Origin: a virus
Taxonomy: Duplodnaviria > Caudoviricetes
Reading direction: 5' to 3' (one strand)
IMG/VR virus record: IMGVR_UViG_3300020079_000007
Coordinates: 1 to 64,000 of that record
DNA: 64,000 nucleotides
Part shown: piece after piece, positions 2,402 to 36,006 of the stretch
Position numbering within the stretch: position 1 is the first letter of the stretch
How the letters are laid out: each line of letters starts with the position of its first letter
Notes under the pieces: generated by a model
Told to the model about the DNA's origin: nothing
Database searches by the model: none
What the model saw: the letters and a program-made list of their open reading frames with translations, nothing else
Program-made: the position numbers and the translations under genes

Positions 2402-3892
2402 TTAACAACCTTTTACGATTTTGTAAATTGCCTCAGCGTCAGTCATATCCTTATCAATCTGCATCTTTAATGCAACATCTAAGATATGCTTAAACTTTGG
2501 ACTTGGCTTCATACCTTTGCCAATCAGGAAGTCTCCTGTGATAATTGGCTTTGGCATTGGCTTACCGATAACTGACTGAATGATAGGCTTCTCTAAAGAC
2601 TTTTCAATACCAACCCAAGCATCGCTAACTGTCTTAACACAAGCTGACCCATCAGCTTTTGCTAACATAATCAGTTTATCAAAAATAGGGTTTGAAGTAA
2701 TTTCCCAAACTGCTTTCTTTGACTTCATATCGCCTAACTGATGAGCTCGCATATGTAAACGAACCAGCTCACGAACTGTTTCGCTGTCGTCGTTTGTCAT
2801 ACCGATACTTTTGCAAATATCGTATGCAATAGGAGCACCATCAACATCGTGACTTGATACCTTAGGGATTGACTCTGTAAACTCTTTACTTCCAATTTTG
2901 AAAGTATTTGTTTTCATTCCTAAAGTTGAATGTGCTTTACCAATGTCGTGTAAGAGAGCAGCCATCATCATAACAAAACGAGTATGCTCATCAAAGTCTT
3001 TTGATAACTCTGCCATTCTTTTCATAACGATTAAGGTATGGTCCCAAGCAGTTCCGTGGGCCTTAGGTGTTAAGTGTGTAAAATCTACAATCTCATCGCC
3101 CTTAAACTCTTTACCGTTGTCGTCAACCCAGATTGAACCTTCAGAGTGCCACATCCAAGACTGAGCAACATTTCGCAGATCAACCATAACTGAAGTTAAT
3201 CCTAATGAAGTTAAAACTCTTGATGCTAAAACAAACTCCCAAGTATCTGGGAATAAGAACTTACCTGCAAAAGTTTTCTCCAGTTCTTTCAGCTGTCTTT
3301 CAGCAGATACTTCAGTAAAAGAAAAATTCCAATCGAGAACTTCTCTTTTTGTGTAAGCTGACTTAAAACCTTTTGAAGCAAGGAAACGAACAAAACGGAA
3401 GATTCTTAATGGGTCTTCATTGATGCGGTCCTGAGCATTTCCAACAAAACGTAATGTTCTGTTTTTGATGTCCTGAGCGCCGCCAACCATATCAAAAATA
3501 AAACCGTCAATATCTTCGTAAAGGGCATTCACGGTAAAATCTCTGCGTTCAGCATCTTCCTTGATGTCACGAGTAAACTCAATTTTTGGATGTCGTCCTT
3601 TTGTAATGTCCTTGCGGAGAGTTGCAATTTCAACTTCTTCAAACTTTCCGTCAATTTCAATCAGCAGCATCGTAACACCGAACGGCTCACTGTTATTTGA
3701 AACATTTGAAAACTTATTGAAGATTTTGTGCAGTTCTTCAGGAGTGGCAGTTGTGCAAATATCATAATCGTGAGGCTCAACGCCCATCAAAAAGTCACGA
3801 ACACAACCGCCTACAAAGTAAGCTTTGAACCCAGCTTCATTGATAGGATTGAGAACCTTTGCTTTATACTGATCTTTAATTGTCATAGTCAA
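2402..3892 (-). CDS. cca: Class II tRNA nucleotidyltransferase (CCA-adding enzyme) with HD domain
   Basis: VGGCVRD...DYD, RRDFTVNAL, EDPLRIFR motifs; HD domain (DHT...LLHDIGK...D). Confidence 0.92.
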   Translation of the reverse strand: MTMTIKDQYKAKVLNPINEAGFKAYFVGGCVRDFLMGVEPHDYDICTTATPEELHKIFNKFSNVSNNSEPFGVTMLLIEIDGKFEEVEIATLRKDITKGRHPKIEFTRDIKEDAERRDFTVNALYEDIDGFIFDMVGGAQDIKNRTLRFVGNAQDRINEDPLRIFRFVRFLASKGFKSAYTKREVLDWNFSFTEVSAERQLKELEKTFAGKFLFPDTWEFVLASRVLTSLGLTSVMVDLRNVAQSWMWHSEGSIWVDDNGKEFKGDEIVDFTHLTPKAHGTAWDHTLIVMKRMAELSKDFDEHTRFVMMMAALLHDIGKAHSTLGMKTNTFKIGSKEFTESIPKVSSHDVDGAPIAYDICKSIGMTNDDSETVRELVRLHMRAHQLGDMKSKKAVWEITSNPIFDKLIMLAKADGSACVKTVSDAWVGIEKSLEKPIIQSVIGKPMPKPIITGDFLIGKGMKPSPKFKHILDVALKMQIDKDMTDAEAIYKIVKGC

Positions 3893-31109: not shown

Positions 31110-31576
31110 TATCTGTTCCCATACTTTTTCTTGAGTCTTTCGTACTCTTCGCGTTCTTTCTTTTCAAGTTCGATAAGACGCTTCTTTTCAAATTCTTCTT
31201 GTTCTTTTGCTTTAACTTCACTGTATTTTGTTTGAAGAACACCAATAATATTCTGTAAAAATTCTGGGATGCCAAATAAGCTTTCTCGCTCTATTTCACA
31301 TTTCTTTCTCTCAAAATAAGAAAGCATTGCTGCAAGTGTGTTACTGTCTTGTATTGGAATTCTTACTTCATCTTTATCAACAAGATTTTCGCCATCAACA
31401 ACAAAAGTAAAGAACTCGGGTCGTTCTTTCATAGCGTAAATCAGCTTTTCGGTAAGGTCGTCTATTGTTTTATCAACATCGTTTCCAAAAAGAGCTCTAA
31501 AACCCTTTCTGTTAGCTTTTTCATAACCTTTGAAAAAGTTTTTAAGAAAAATGTTTTGGTCAATTCTATCCAACAT
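31109..31576 (-). CDS. Hypothetical phage protein
   Basis: 155 aa; C-terminal EREEYERLKKKYG. Confidence 0.7.
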   Translation of the reverse strand: MLDRIDQNIFLKNFFKGYEKANRKGFRALFGNDVDKTIDDLTEKLIYAMKERPEFFTFVVDGENLVDKDEVRIPIQDSNTLAAMLSYFERKKCEIERESLFGIPEFLQNIIGVLQTKYSEVKAKEQEEFEKKRLIELEKKEREEYERLKKKYGNR

Positions 31577-31767
31577 TATGATAACCCCATAGGAAGCATA
31601 TCTATTACTGATGTGATTGCTGTATAACCATTACGTCTTGCTTCCTGAGCAATCTTATCAATATTATCTTCATACTGTAAACCCAATGTTGTAAAAAGTG
31701 TAGCAACAAGGGTTCCTTCTTTATCGTAAATACGAAGTCTTATGTGGTGCCAATTTAATGCGCCCAT
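31576..31767 (-). CDS. Hypothetical protein
   Basis: 63 aa; SD GGAGG; coupled. Confidence 0.6.
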   Translation of the reverse strand: MGALNWHHIRLRIYDKEGTLVATLFTTLGLQYEDNIDKIAQEARRNGYTAITSVIDMLPMGLS

Positions 31768-32112
31768 TTACGCCTCCACTTTTTTCACAGGCTTATCAAG
31801 ATACTTCCACTCATTAACAGGCCAACTTTGGTCAGACTCTCCATCAATTGCATTTTTGATAAACCAACCGCTTGAGCTTTTGTAATAACCTATAAAAGTT
31901 TTTTCACAAATGGGCTTATCACCGAAAGTTGATGTTAGAGTACCGTGACATAAAACCAATTCGCCTTCACGAGGAAGGTCATTCTCTTCTACATAATGCC
32001 ATTCGTGATTGCTCCCATCTTTAAGACCTTCGTTATAACCTTCGTTATAAACAGCCTTTAAGATAAACTCAACTTTTTTGGCATCTCTTCTTAACACATC
32101 TGCTAACTTCAT
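31768..32112 (-). CDS. DUF551-like phage protein
   Basis: EWHYVEENDLP...VLC...V..W pattern. Confidence 0.55.
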   Translation of the reverse strand: MKLADVLRRDAKKVEFILKAVYNEGYNEGLKDGSNHEWHYVEENDLPREGELVLCHGTLTSTFGDKPICEKTFIGYYKSSSGWFIKNAIDGESDQSWPVNEWKYLDKPVKKVEA

Positions 32113-32121
32113 AATTTTATA

Positions 32122-32595
32122 TTAACTGTCAAAGCCTGTTTCAACTTTTACGAGGTCTTTAGGTGTTTCCTTTTTAAGTTTTTCAAGCTTTTCTTTGTAC
32201 ATTTCAATCTTTCTTTCACAGTCCTCAATGTCTGCTTTATTTTGAAATGAAAGCGGCTTGAAAGATTCCCAGAGCGCACAATTTGATTTATAGCTTTTAG
32301 GGTACTTTTTGTAAAAAACATCTTCTGCTTCTTTCTGAGTTTTTGCGAGGATTCTTTCTGTTTCTGTTGATCTTGTTACATCGCTTCGCTTATTGTAACG
32401 CCCTTGAACTTCTTCGTGTACATACTGAAAATAATATGCATTTAAGAAAAAGTCCTTTTTTGTCAATTCTTCAGCAGCAGCTTTTATAACAGACTTTTCT
32501 TCATCTCTTAATTCAGTATAAGGATGATATGTGTGGTCAAGATGATCTGAATTGTGGCGGGCAACAAAAATCATAATACTCTTCACCTGATACAA
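32122..32595 (-). CDS. Hypothetical protein
   Basis: 157-aa ORF. Confidence 0.65.
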
Positions 32596-32866
32596 ACTTT
32601 TTAGCTCTTCCTTTATAATCTCCTGTGCTTATTATTGCAGCAATCCAACTTATCTGATAAGTCTCTAAATCTTTATTTGTCAAAACACATACACCATCAG
32701 AAGAGTTGACATAAAAAATAAGATATGCATAATTACCAAGCATAAGAGAACGGATTACGATTTCGTTAAGAGGGAGCTCTTCTAAATCAGGTATCTCTAA
32801 AACAAAATCGAAGTAGTGATACTGTTCTTGATGAAATTGATTTTTACCGTTTAAGAATTGAGCCAT
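32537..32866 (-). CDS. Hypothetical protein directly downstream of the terminator/antiterminator
   Basis: 109-aa ORF. Confidence 0.65.
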
Positions 32867-32880
32867 ATAAAAGCCACCAT

Positions 32881-32914
32881 AAAAAGATAGAGGGTTGACA
32901 TAACATCAACCCTC
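32881..32914 (-). terminator. Intrinsic terminator closing the tmRNA/ncRNA transcript
   Basis: Perfect 9-bp stem GAGGGTTGA/TCAACCCTC followed by TATCTTTTT on -. Confidence 0.8.
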
Positions 32915-33300
32915 GGGGATTAGCGCACCGCGCTCTGTTCCTCCACCACTTGCTTTTTAGGAAAGCAAGAAAACCGAGGGTGTCCCGATTTCTCGAAACA
33001 ACTTATCCACCACCAATTTTTGAGAAAAATTGGAAAACAACAGTCAAGGAGTAACCATCAACTCTTAACTGTAGTGGGAGAGTGTAGCCACTCAACCCCA
33101 CCGCCAGCAGTTTTCTGTCAAAACTGCAAACTCTCAAAGGGATCCTGAACCTTTAAGAAGTTTCACTTTCACTTTCAGTTGTCCGAACTCAACTAAAGCA
33201 GGGAGGGAAACCGAAAGCAATCCCTATGGGGATAATCTCCACCACCAAGTTTCATTGATGTTTTCAGAAGGAAGCTTCAAAAAACTTGGAAACAAATACC
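32915..33300 (-). ncRNA. Putative novel structured RNA: four GUUU-hairpin-UGGY-GG units (strand not certain)
   Basis: No ORF, continuous hairpins, four covarying units with RCCA (+) at 32945, 33009, 33103, 33241. Confidence 0.65.
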
Positions 33301-33900
33301 TTAAACTTTACATCGTCCTTTGGAAAAACCATCGGGACAAGTTGCGGATTTTACATTTTTGACTCCGTTAGTCCACCAATGTGTTCCAAACTGACTGTTT
33401 GCAGAACCTTTATGTGATTCTGACATTTTCTTTTTTGACTCTTCAGAAAACTTAAAACCAGTTGTTCCTTTATTGCTATGGTGATTTTTATTGCAATAGT
33501 ACCAACCTTTGTTTCTACCTTCTTTATAAGCCTTTTTCATTGCATCACTCAAATGCTTTTTATATGAGTCAGAACGATAATCAATAAATTTTGAAAGATC
33601 TCCGCCATCACCGCCACTCGCAAGATTGTACTCTGCTTTGCCAATAAGCTTTTGACAGGCTATCATACATCTTTCAAAATGATTTATCTGTTCTTTGGTA
33701 AAAAATCCTGAAATAACAATTGTCTTTTCAAAATTTTCCAAACCATATTTTCTTTGAGCCGCATTTATAAGTCTTCCCGAACCATAATAAATGTCTGTCT
33801 CAAAAGTTCTCCCCTTTCTTAGGGTGTGTTGGCCAATGTAAGTTTTTCCATTAACCAAATTTTTAATCTCATAAATATATCTAATTACTTGTGTTTCCAT
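33301..33900 (-). CDS. GIY-YIG homing endonuclease (Seg-like) with NUMOD3-type repeats
   Basis: YIYEIKN...TYIGQH, YYGSG, E..., YNLASGG, SEESKKKMSESHKG. Confidence 0.9.
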   Translation of the reverse strand: METQVIRYIYEIKNLVNGKTYIGQHTLRKGRTFETDIYYGSGRLINAAQRKYGLENFEKTIVISGFFTKEQINHFERCMIACQKLIGKAEYNLASGGDGGDLSKFIDYRSDSYKKHLSDAMKKAYKEGRNKGWYYCNKNHHSNKGTTGFKFSEESKKKMSESHKGSANSQFGTHWWTNGVKNVKSATCPDGFSKGRCKV

Positions 33901-33925
33901 AAGTAATTAGTATACTTTGGATCTT

Positions 33926-34306
33926 TGGAGCTGGGGAGAATCGAACTCCCGTCCTATGTAACTGACCGCTAACACTTCTTTACAGGCTTAAACTCCATTA
34001 TTTTAGGCTTAAGGAACGGAGCAAAAACTATAGTTCGGTTGTTGATACAATCTCAGAAGCCACCAATAAACCGCTTCTTTTGAAGGTTGCTCTTTTGTGA
34101 TACAACTCCATTTGGAAAGCAATAGCCGTCTGGGTTGCAACTAAGGGAGTTTATCCCCTTAGGTTAGGCAGCGATTCTTGCGAATACGCTGTTGCTCTTG
34201 CGAGCGAAAACTGAACGTTTTGTTGCAGTTATTTTTGTTCGTATTAAGGTCGACACCTTTACCTGATGTTAGAAACCACTTTACAAGTCGAAACCTGTGC
34301 AGCCCC
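33926..34306 (-). ncRNA. ssrA: tmRNA (no encoded 3' CCA)
   Basis: 5' GGGGCUGCACAGGUUUCGAC; 3' GGACGGGAGUUCGAUUCUCCCCAGCUCCA; G3.U70 pair; AUAACU-GCA resume context; tag ORF 34226-34164 ending AA-stop. Confidence 0.95.
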
Positions 34307-34332
34307 TTATATTTAATATATTAACAAGAACT

Positions 34333-34734
34333 TTAGATTAAGTCCAAAATTCTTCTTAATCTTTCTATGTTCAAGTTTGAAAATTGCTTAATCGTATCAA
34401 CATTTTCAATTCCTGTTGAAGCAAGCTTATCAATGTTTTTCAAATCCTCAATCAAGAATCTGATTGCATCTGATACCAAAGCTTTCATATTTGAAGCAAC
34501 AGTCAAATTTCCGTCTTCGATGTATGGAGCCAACTTTGCGTAAGAGTTGTTTACAAACTTTACGAAGTCAGCTGACTGATGATTGTCGTAAACAGCCTCA
34601 CTAAACTTTTGGAGAATTGTTCTGCTCTCTAAGTCAGAACCTTCTGTAAGTTTTATATAGTAGTTGAGGTTTAGTCTTTCACTAAACATAAGAACTTGTA
34701 AAACATAATTCTTCAAAAGTTTTGTATGATCCAT
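34333..34734 (-). CDS. Hypothetical protein
   Basis: 133-aa ORF. Confidence 0.7.
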   Translation of the reverse strand: MDHTKLLKNYVLQVLMFSERLNLNYYIKLTEGSDLESRTILQKFSEAVYDNHQSADFVKFVNNSYAKLAPYIEDGNLTVASNMKALVSDAIRFLIEDLKNIDKLASTGIENVDTIKQFSNLNIERLRRILDLI

Positions 34735-34750
34735 TTATGCCACCTGATAA

Positions 34751-34909
34751 TTAGCGGATTATGTTTGCAAAAATAGTTGCGTTCCTTCGCTGAACAATTT
34801 TACCATCTTTGCGGCCAATAAATACGCCTGCTGTCTTGTTGTAAGAAAGCTGCCATCCATTGAACTCAGCATCAAAGCCGCGGCGAACTGTTTCCAAAAG
34901 TTCCATCAT
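34751..34909 (-). CDS. Small hypothetical protein (52 aa, not in the ORF track)
   Basis: SD GGAGG; MMELLETVRRGFDAEF...IIR*. Confidence 0.6.
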   Translation of the reverse strand: MMELLETVRRGFDAEFNGWQLSYNKTAGVFIGRKDGKIVQRRNATIFANIIR

Positions 34910-34930
34910 AATTAAAAACCTCCTGCGCTT

Positions 34931-35210
34931 TTACGCAACATAAGTTGTATATTCGTTAGTTCCGCTGTCTCTTTCAAGAACAGTTTGAACCATTTTAAGA
35001 CCTAAGTCATTTCCAACAAAATCCTGCAAGTCAGCAACTTTTCTTATTGAGCCATCAGGAAGTTGTCTTTCTTCAGTAGAAGCTGAAAGTCCGCCCACGC
35101 CAACCATTGCAAGAGCGTCCCACATTGAACTGTATTTTTTTAGGAGTCATATTCCCGTTACCATAATCAGCAACAAGGTCCGCAATCAACTCTTTTTTAG
35201 CAAGTTCCAT
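34931..35210 (-). pseudogene. ORF interrupted by a frameshift in an A7 run
   Basis: MELAKKE...MTPKK (from 35210, SD GGAG) joins the MWDAL... frame if the A7 run at 35135-35141 were A6. Confidence 0.55.
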
Positions 35211-35340
35211 TGTCAACTCCAATGAAGGTTTCCCGCTCCTTGGGTCCACCTACAAACCCCGTAAACCATCGGTAAGAACCGACTCAATGCAGGCTGTCAA
35301 CCAACCTGACAATAATAATATAAAGAAGGATAATAAAAAG

Positions 35341-35398
35341 TATAAATTTCTCTTATACTTTTTTTTATTTATCCCCTCCATTATAGTTCAAAAATTCG
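35341..35398 (-). repeat. Dispersed ~58-bp intergenic repeat, copy 1
   Basis: CGAATTTTTGAACTATAATGGAGGG...TAAGAG(T)AAATTTATA also at 48969-49028 on +. Confidence 0.8.
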
Positions 35399-35400
35399 CC

Positions 35401-36006
35401 TTAGTCGTCGTGTTTTTCGCCTTCTCTCCAAGGATTGTATGGGTACATAGCGCCGCATTTTCTACAAATGTTGTATTCTGCGCCGTGCATAATGTTCATA
35501 GGCAATTTTGCATAGCCAAAAACTTTACCGCCGCAGTTAGGACAAGGACCGTTATAGCCGTTAGGAAGTGGGTTGCTTCCCCAAGTTCCTATAACGCCGT
35601 TACTGCCTGAGCCTTCATCTCCATTGCAATATTTTTCAACATCAGCAGCAGATGCCCAAAGATTGCAGTCTTCAACAGTGTAAGAGCCGAGGTCATAATA
35701 GTTATATTTCATCTGACCTACTGTTTGGTCAAGAATGATGACTTCATTATCTTTATTGTCTTCAAACCAATCTTCAAATGAGTCATAGCCTTCTTCTGTA
35801 AGGTCAGTTGATATTTCATCTTTAAGGTCTTCGACTTTACCCATAGCGATAACTTTTGCCTCGGAGTCTTCTCCGAAGCCACCTGTGCCGTGGGCGTAAA
35901 CATCACAACCTGCATCAAGAAGTGACTTCAAATCTTTTTCATTAGTTACTTCTGACATCCCGATTGTTGACTCACGGTATATGTTTTCAAATAACTTGTT
36001 CTCCAT
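35401..36006 (-). CDS. Acidic hypothetical protein with C-terminal zinc ribbon
   Basis: MENKLFENIYRES start with SD AGGAG; CPNC...CRKC. Confidence 0.7.
   Translation of the reverse strand: MENKLFENIYRESTIGMSEVTNEKDLKSLLDAGCDVYAHGTGGFGEDSEAKVIAMGKVEDLKDEISTDLTEEGYDSFEDWFEDNKDNEVIILDQTVGQMKYNYYDLGSYTVEDCNLWASAADVEKYCNGDEGSGSNGVIGTWGSNPLPNGYNGPCPNCGGKVFGYAKLPMNIMHGAEYNICRKCGAMYPYNPWREGEKHDD

Follow-up and report, generated by a model that had tools for sequence, protein, structure and literature searches.

The element at positions 32879 to 32982 (minus strand) of the phage DNA studied here is probably the end of a stable, divergent wcaG-like RNA located behind a phage tmRNA gene. On this explanation, which we consider the best one, the stretch comprises the terminal module, a small GC hairpin, and the intrinsic terminator of a structured RNA of about 410 nt. 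Transcription of the unit would start at the tmRNA gene, of which the structured RNA would form the 3' trailer. The features concerned are as follows; "the window" denotes the whole stretch of DNA that was analyzed (i.e., 64,000 nucleotides, positions 1 to 64,000 of the 188-kb record IMGVR_UViG_3300020079_000007).

34325, 32126, 30118, 27532, 44364, and 15009 (minus strand): sites of GTTAATAT, among others (motif scan)
60995 and 61313 (plus strand): sites of GTTAATAT (motif scan)
33926-34306 (minus strand): phage tmRNA gene (Rfam RF00023, 88.2 bits; ARAGORN)
33301-33900 (minus strand): GIY-YIG/NUMOD3 homing endonuclease gene (Pfam SegE_GIY-YIG and NUMOD3; PHROG 314 at 1.8e-22)
33101-33289 (minus strand): modules 1 and 2 together (sequence, fold, RNA contigs)
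33289-33245 and 33244-33237 (minus strand): module 1, a hairpin and UGGUGGAG (sequence, RNA contigs)
33127-33107 and 33106-33101 (minus strand): module 2, a hairpin and UGGCGG (sequence, RNA contigs)
32934-33041 (minus strand): modules 3 and 4 (match to the wcaG RNA motif, RF01761)
33033-33013 and 33012-33006 (minus strand): module 3, a hairpin and UGGUGGA (wcaG match)
33000-32981 (minus strand): middle hairpin, GNRA capped (wcaG match, variants in RNA contigs)
32981-32974 (minus strand): 5' strand of the alternative helix, ACCCUCGG (sequence, duplex scan, folding)
32969-32949 and 32948-32942 (minus strand): module 4, a hairpin and UGGUGGA (wcaG match)
32922-32934 (minus strand): small hairpin, AGCGC-GGU-GCGCU (sequence, folding)
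32916-32909 (minus strand): 3' strand of the alternative helix, CCGAGGGU (overlaps the 5' arm of the terminator)
32879-32914 (minus strand): intrinsic terminator with a 10-bp stem, a 5-nt loop, and the tract UAUCUUUUUAU (terminator scan)
32914-32905 and 32899-32890 (minus strand): terminator stem arms, GAGGGUUGAU and GUCAACCCUC, with the loop GUUAU between them
32537-32866 (minus strand): first downstream ORF, 109 aa (no known family; homologues at 58% and 85% identity)

A gap of about 430 nt without an ORF holds four modules of the form UUU(U)C, hairpin, UGGYGG, and the 441-nt stretch folds better than its shuffles (z = -5.3). Against the covariance model of the wcaG RNA motif (RF01761; Rfam gathering cutoff, 42 bits), the segment formed by modules 3 and 4 scored 41.5 bits (E = 8e-6; 1.8e-7 per genome), i.e., just under the cutoff, while the orthologous RNA of a related genome (L003) scored 42.3 bits, i.e., just over it. 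The architecture of wcaG is present in this segment, with two hairpins (33033-33013 and 32969-32949) that are each followed by UGGUGG and with a variable hairpin between them. Modules 1 and 2, taken as a pair, gave no match to the wcaG model. The conserved wcaG core UGGUGCGGAUGG ... CCGCC is absent from the window, which reads UGGUGGAUAAGU ... GGGACACCC. Also absent is the wcaG pseudoknot, in which the 4 nt before UUUC pair with the first 4 loop nucleotides of the last hairpin; the window permits only GG:CC. The position of the linker that forms this pseudoknot in canonical wcaG RNAs is occupied by ACCCUCGG.

The tmRNA gene, the endonuclease gene, and the ORFs all lie on the minus strand, and small ORFs of no known family run on after the RNA gap. 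The homing endonuclease gene is an insertion between the tmRNA gene and the RNA array and is no part of the RNA. The ribosome-binding site of the first downstream ORF (UGGUGG, 32879-32874) begins directly 3' of the U tract; it forms a fifth copy of the single-stranded word of the modules and reads UGGCGG in another related genome (L419). The motif GTTAATAT occurs in 17 copies on the main coding strand versus 4 on the opposite strand. It usually lies 5 to 8 nt upstream of ATG and once lies 11 nt before tmRNA nucleotide 1, and it resembles a phage-specific promoter element of genes with a very short leader or none. For ACTAATT, the window contained 15 copies versus 17 expected, i.e., no excess over chance. 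Neither ORF 32866-32537 nor the next ORF is preceded by GTTAATAT, the next copy of which is at 32126; therefore, these two ORFs probably depend on read-through of the terminator. The original prediction had placed read-through into 32866-32537 and onward under a T-box-like control. The need of the ORFs for read-through is probable, given their lack of the motif, while the membership of the control element in the T-box family was not borne out (see below).

Related genomic copies of the locus are L003 (the same as L265 and L442; IMG/VR and a metagenome), L419 (reached via an 85%-identical protein, P0001), and L589 (a 306-kb contig). Loose DNA pattern scans yielded mostly glycine-rich coding repeats and were filtered by hairpin geometry, after which the only true relatives were L003/L265/L442, L419, and L589, with helix arms identical in all of them. 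The same RNA lies behind the tmRNA in L003, L419, and L589. L003 and L419 lack the endonuclease gene, and their arrays begin about 10 nt past the tmRNA; the gene is present in the window and in L589 (at about 2800-3395, reverse strand), i.e., it represents a presence/absence polymorphism, and in L589 module 1 was lost through its insertion. A comparison of the window with L003 gives an identity of 97% in modules 3 and 4 with the terminator, 61% in the tmRNA, and 73% in the downstream ORF.

Within the stretch of interest, every difference among the genomic copies falls in a loop or linker. One loop changes from GAAA to GCAA (both GNRA tetraloops), the loop of the small hairpin changes from GGU to GAU on a fixed stem, a linker changes from CAGAGC to CAAAGC, and the terminator loop reads three ways (i.e., GUUAU, GUAU, and GAAA) on an unchanged stem. 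The arms of the alternative helix are invariant in four genomic variants and four RNA contigs, and among the genomic copies those of the terminator do not vary either, which shows strong constraint. Because the arms are identical in all genomic variants, they offer no covariation to read, and the constraint does not distinguish between the two structures. Conservation is as strict in the single-stranded UGGUGGA segments as in the helices, suggesting a binding partner. In the RNA contigs, the GNRA hairpin 33000-32981 shows a double change from U32998-A32983 to C-G as well as the changes of C32995 to U and of U32996 to C, both of which keep their pairs; these compensatory or compatible changes support the hairpin. 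The ACCCUCGG strand is invariant though this neighboring hairpin tolerates changes.

The RNA evidence consists of assembled contigs, not raw reads, from four gut metatranscriptome runs of three studies. These contigs cover the tmRNA and 32889-33304 at 85 to 99% identity, and one of them passes directly from the 3' end of the tmRNA to module 1, i.e., it represents the endonuclease-free form. Their downstream stops at 32941, 32914, 32907, and 32889 are contig ends, not mapped RNA ends. A 615-nt contig (run X21) joins 32889, which is 1 nt past the terminator stem, head-to-tail to 34306 (tmRNA nucleotide 1); true RNA ends brought together by ligation or by template switching could account for this junction, as could a circular RNA or a tandem arrangement in a relative. 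Taken together, the contigs give a weak hint of an RNA that starts at the tmRNA and ends at the terminator. ORF 32866-32537 and the endonuclease gene have no RNA-contig cover, and such missing cover does not equal absence.

The phage comes from animal guts, not from the sea, and is not a cyanophage: its DNA was found in animal feces, bovine-gut, and bird metagenomes, and parts of it were found in sheep-gut and other gut metatranscriptomes. Searches of the phage collection gave no match by blastn in distant mode with 2 kb of sequence and none by tblastn with an 859-aa protein of the window, and the phage appears from them to have no close described relative. The sister contig L589 (i.e., G002:C130) was binned in a 2.1-Mb "Candidatus Fimenecus" (Clostridia) metagenome-assembled genome (MAG), a weak hint that the host is possibly a member of the Clostridia. 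The 188-kb record is estimated to be about 65% complete, which the 306-kb length of this sister fits, suggesting a jumbo phage.

The strands ACCCUCGG and CCGAGGGU form 8 Watson-Crick pairs without a mismatch (predicted duplex energy, -14.4 kcal/mol), and the 8-pair helix that had been predicted at 32981-32974 and 32916-32909 is real, with exactly these coordinates on the minus strand. The terminator is the top terminator-like site within 31500-35500 in an independent terminator scan (stem, 32914-32890). Its GC-rich stem has 10 pairs by RNAfold and 11 by the terminator scan, U occupies 7 of the 9 bases directly 3' of the stem, and the hairpin energy is -14.7 kcal/mol, compared with a median of -14.0 for canonical wcaG-linked terminators. 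Since bases 32914-32909 are common to the two helices, the alternative helix and the terminator are mutually exclusive, as was originally proposed. When the alternative helix was forced, RNAfold returned a three-way junction that holds the hairpin 32969-32949, the unpaired 7-nt segment UGGUGGA (32948-32942), and the AGCGC/GCGCU hairpin (32934-32922), thereby reproducing the arrangement described before. For the full-length RNA, the terminator state is 7.4 kcal/mol better than the alternative state (-57.8 versus -50.4 kcal/mol), and the pair probability of the alternative helix in equilibrium folding is about 0. For nascent RNAs with a 3' end anywhere in 32909-32895, the minimum-energy fold includes the alternative helix. 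Folding agrees in this respect with the predicted terminator/antiterminator geometry, in which the upstream helix forms before the terminator and is the weaker of the two.

The helices and their energetics, the wcaG-like match, the tmRNA linkage, and the contig stops come directly from the sequence and the tools applied to it, and from them the following course of events may be proposed. A stable noncoding RNA of about 410 nt, a divergent relative of wcaG, would be transcribed as the trailer of the tmRNA gene. The 8-bp helix ACCCUCGG:CCGAGGGU is predicted to form first during transcription, and the terminator hairpin, which is somewhat more stable, would then displace it from a free UGAU/GUCA toehold, so that the default outcome would be termination at the Rho-independent terminator. 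A minority of polymerases would read through and supply the two downstream ORFs that lack the promoter motif. Since these ORFs lack the motif, read-through matters and could be regulated, and we infer that the alternative helix tunes it.

A rather unlikely competing explanation is that the alternative helix is fortuitous or an inconsequential intermediate, with a plain terminator and with the ORFs served by an unrecognized promoter or a constitutive leak. The upstream 129 nt and the 5' arm of the terminator form at best a duplex of -15.6 kcal/mol, and this complementarity was reached by only 1.9% of 1000 dinucleotide shuffles (z = -2.7). The 8-bp complementarity is thus moderately unlikely to be due to chance, i.e., it is beyond the usual level but not overwhelmingly so. 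That about 2% of the shuffles equal it, that the helix is unpopulated at equilibrium, and that comparative support is lacking all favor a fortuitous origin; however, ACCCUCGG lies at the exact position that is engaged as a pseudoknot strand in canonical wcaG and is invariant while the adjoining GNRA hairpin accepts changes. A low-chance complementarity with full invariance of the arms would also be the expected look of a real switch.

We regard as unlikely a ligand-controlled attenuator, in which a protein, a small molecule, or an RNA would bind the UGGUGGA/UGGUGGAGG segments, release their weak pairings with CCUC and AUCCCC, and thereby stabilize the 8-bp helix and permit read-through at 32866 and onward. 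Both UGGUGGA segments pair weakly with C-rich stretches (i.e., CCUC of ACCCUCGG and AUCCCC) when the terminator is folded and are unpaired in the alternative-state fold. Because part of ACCCUCGG is among the strands that they occupy, any factor binding them would favor the 8-bp helix. The antiterminator is weaker than the terminator, like those of known ligand-stabilized switches, and the downstream ORFs lack a promoter motif of their own. Weinberg et al. described wcaG in 2010, in marine metagenomes and T4-like cyanophages, as a probable riboswitch candidate, and they noted the duplicated UGGYG and proposed a dimeric protein as a possible binder (PMC2864571). These points speak for a ligand; the absence of covariation in the helix arms and the behavior of the canonical wcaG family speak against it.

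The canonical set comprised 106 nonredundant wcaG loci from IMG/VR. The linker-to-loop pseudoknot, which is already marked in the original alignment, is present in 99 of them, with six covarying pair sets. An intrinsic terminator with a perfect stem follows 92 of the 106 RNAs (median, 44 nt past UUUC). In 61 of these 92, the hairpin carries a -35-like TTGACA/TTGCAT, located in the terminator loop or 3' arm (e.g., the cyanophage-type loci L205, L214, L103, L160, and L171), and the U tract leads into a TATAAT-like -10 box. The start of the motif often coincides with the stop codon of the ORF before it. Because the promoter sits in or after the terminator, the canonical motif ends the upstream unit and is not the leader of the next gene, which counts against the ligand-controlled attenuator. 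The motif was no more complementary to its own terminator than to those of mismatched pairs (z = -0.02; 87 canonical loci), and its pairing with the terminator was barely better than that of shuffles (mean z = -0.41). Thus, the conservation in homologues that had been proposed as a check on the alternative pairing does not extend across canonical wcaG, and about 90 canonical loci gave no sign of a coevolving antiterminator. In 64 of the 87 loci, the best partner of the terminator 5' arm was the C-rich strand CUCCCGCCUG, which is homologous in position to ACCCUCGG. A preference of G-rich terminator arms for the CUCCCGCC strand of the motif was apparent against all background hairpins (P = 6e-4) and was gone when other terminator-promoter modules of these contigs served as the comparison (P = 0.58; n = 10); G-rich 5' arms are common to such modules that are not next to wcaG, and the preference was discarded.

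The original prediction likened the element to a T-box. The layout of the element is a closing helix, a UGGN single strand, a small GC hairpin, and a 3' strand in common with the terminator. The resemblance in logic stands, i.e., the weaker antiterminator, the UGGN strand, the GC hairpin, and, as in T-boxes, a terminator that excludes the antiterminator and is the more stable of the two. Membership in the family was rejected on the grounds of model, sequence, and fold. The T-box model (RF00230) had no match in 32400-34500 (E <= 10) or anywhere else in the 188-kb record (G000), while the same model detected four T-boxes at 110 to 137 bits in the Clostridia MAG (G002) that holds L589. The conserved T-box sequence AGGGUGGNACCGCG, which makes up the 5' side of a bulged antiterminator hairpin in T-boxes, is absent, the window reading AAGUGGUGGAGGAACAGAGCGCGG; neither Stem I, a specifier loop, and the 14-nt T-box sequence nor Stem II/III is present at the locus, and the forced fold is a three-way junction. 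The earlier remark that no Stem I or specifier loop is recognizable holds here too.

It is very doubtful that the element acts as a Stem-I-less T-box-like sensor, in which the uncharged end of tRNA-Ala or tmRNA (CUCCACCA-3') would pair with UGGUGGAG in the junction and stabilize the antiterminator. With CCA added, the 3' end of the tmRNA has 8 nt of complementarity to the word UGGUGGAG (modules 1 and 4) and 7 nt to module 3 (predicted duplexes, about -13.5 to -14.5 kcal/mol). The tmRNA gene lies directly upstream, the layout is topologically comparable to a T-box antiterminator, and the sister contig was binned with a T-box-using Clostridia MAG. Against these points, the RF00230 model has no match, and there is neither a Stem I nor a specifier to hold a tRNA. 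The tmRNA acceptor of L003 is GGUCCA versus GCUCCA in the window, and its modules still read UGGUGGAG; therefore, the eighth pair does not covary. No tRNA genes were found in the phage record, and the canonical wcaG modules UGGUGCGG and GUGGCGAG fit the Ala/tmRNA acceptor end at CCA alone. Adjacency of wcaG to tRNA genes is not enriched either, a tRNA gene lying within 300 nt in 15 of the 106 loci, compared with a rough baseline of about 14% derived from the tRNA gene density around these loci.

A GGAGG at 32944-32940 (minus strand) is followed, after 11 nt, by a two-codon mini-ORF (GUG-CGC-UAA; 32928-32920) in the small hairpin. The sole change in the loop of this hairpin among the relatives turns GUG into AUG (AUG in three relatives), i.e., the start codon is kept. 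Transcription-translation coupling is weak in Bacillota. Ribosome-mediated attenuation, in which GGAGG and the mini-ORF would place a ribosome over CCGAGGG and block the terminator hairpin, is highly improbable: the kept start codon and a stop codon 3 nt ahead of the shared helix strand and terminator arm (from 32916) fit it, but the 11-nt spacing is long, the start codon is buried in a GC hairpin, one substitution is thin evidence, and the weak coupling in Bacillota is unfavorable.

The wcaG RNAs are an orphan class found so far only in marine metagenomes and cyanophages. Four points are new here: a divergent wcaG relative occurs in animal-gut phages; it is physically linked with a tmRNA gene; RNA contigs of several gut metatranscriptomes hold the wcaG-like RNA together with the tmRNA; and the canonical motif lies at the end of a transcription unit, before the terminator that carries the next promoter, rather than in the leader of that promoter. 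The question accordingly shifts from which metabolite is sensed for the downstream gene to what binds a terminator-proximal UGGYG-repeat RNA. With its clean antiterminator-like helix and two probably read-through-dependent ORFs, the version in the window makes a convenient test construct. If the sensing of tRNA or tmRNA proved true, the trailer RNA of the tmRNA would tell the phage how far its own tmRNA is charged or available, which by extension would suggest that the orphan wcaG family is an "anti-CCA" RNA.

The likeness of the preferred wcaG-like RNA to known systems is partial in each case. With the T-box riboswitch (RF00230), the element shares a terminator that competes with a less stable upstream helix and a UGGN single strand that adjoins a small GC hairpin within this helix; T-boxes are used in Clostridia, the possible host class. 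However, the T-box has a 7-nt bulge between helices A1 and A2 where the window has a three-way junction, and it sits ahead of an aminoacyl-tRNA synthetase or amino-acid gene, whereas the element lies behind a tmRNA. Leaky internal intrinsic terminators between a stable RNA and a downstream mRNA have in common with the window a GC stem and U tract directly after a structured RNA and a next ORF 14 nt farther on with no promoter motif of its own; the window terminator differs in its perfect 8-bp upstream competitor, which plain terminators do not need. Structured phage RNAs linked to tRNA genes, such as manA RNA, resemble the RNA in being sizeable, conserved, without an assigned function, and beside tRNA-type genes. 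GOLLD and ROOL are also structured phage RNAs linked to tRNA genes. In Rfam-model searches, the region had no sequence or model match to families of the manA, GOLLD, or ROOL type. The motif of wcaG is sometimes found among tRNA genes, as in Synechococcus phage S-CREM1 (L124; OP535465, 9745-10643), where wcaG and manA RNA lie within a tRNA gene array and a TTGACA-17-TATAAT promoter lies between wcaG and tRNA-Met; the RNA of the window lies beside a tmRNA. With the wcaG RNA motif (RF01761; PMC2864571), it shares two hairpins, each with UUUC before and UGGYG after it, a variable hairpin between them, an intrinsic terminator close 3' (92 of 106 canonical loci), and a phage-borne location. It differs in lacking the conserved GCGGAUGG...CCGCC core and the 4-bp linker-to-loop pseudoknot (99 of 106 canonical loci; at most GG:CC in the window), in having four modules rather than two or three, in a terminator without the embedded promoter of canonical wcaG loci, and in its position behind a tmRNA in an animal-gut phage, while the known members are marine or cyanophage RNAs. 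The RNA of the window is thus set apart from known wcaG RNAs by a habitat and a genomic partner that are both new and by its modified core.
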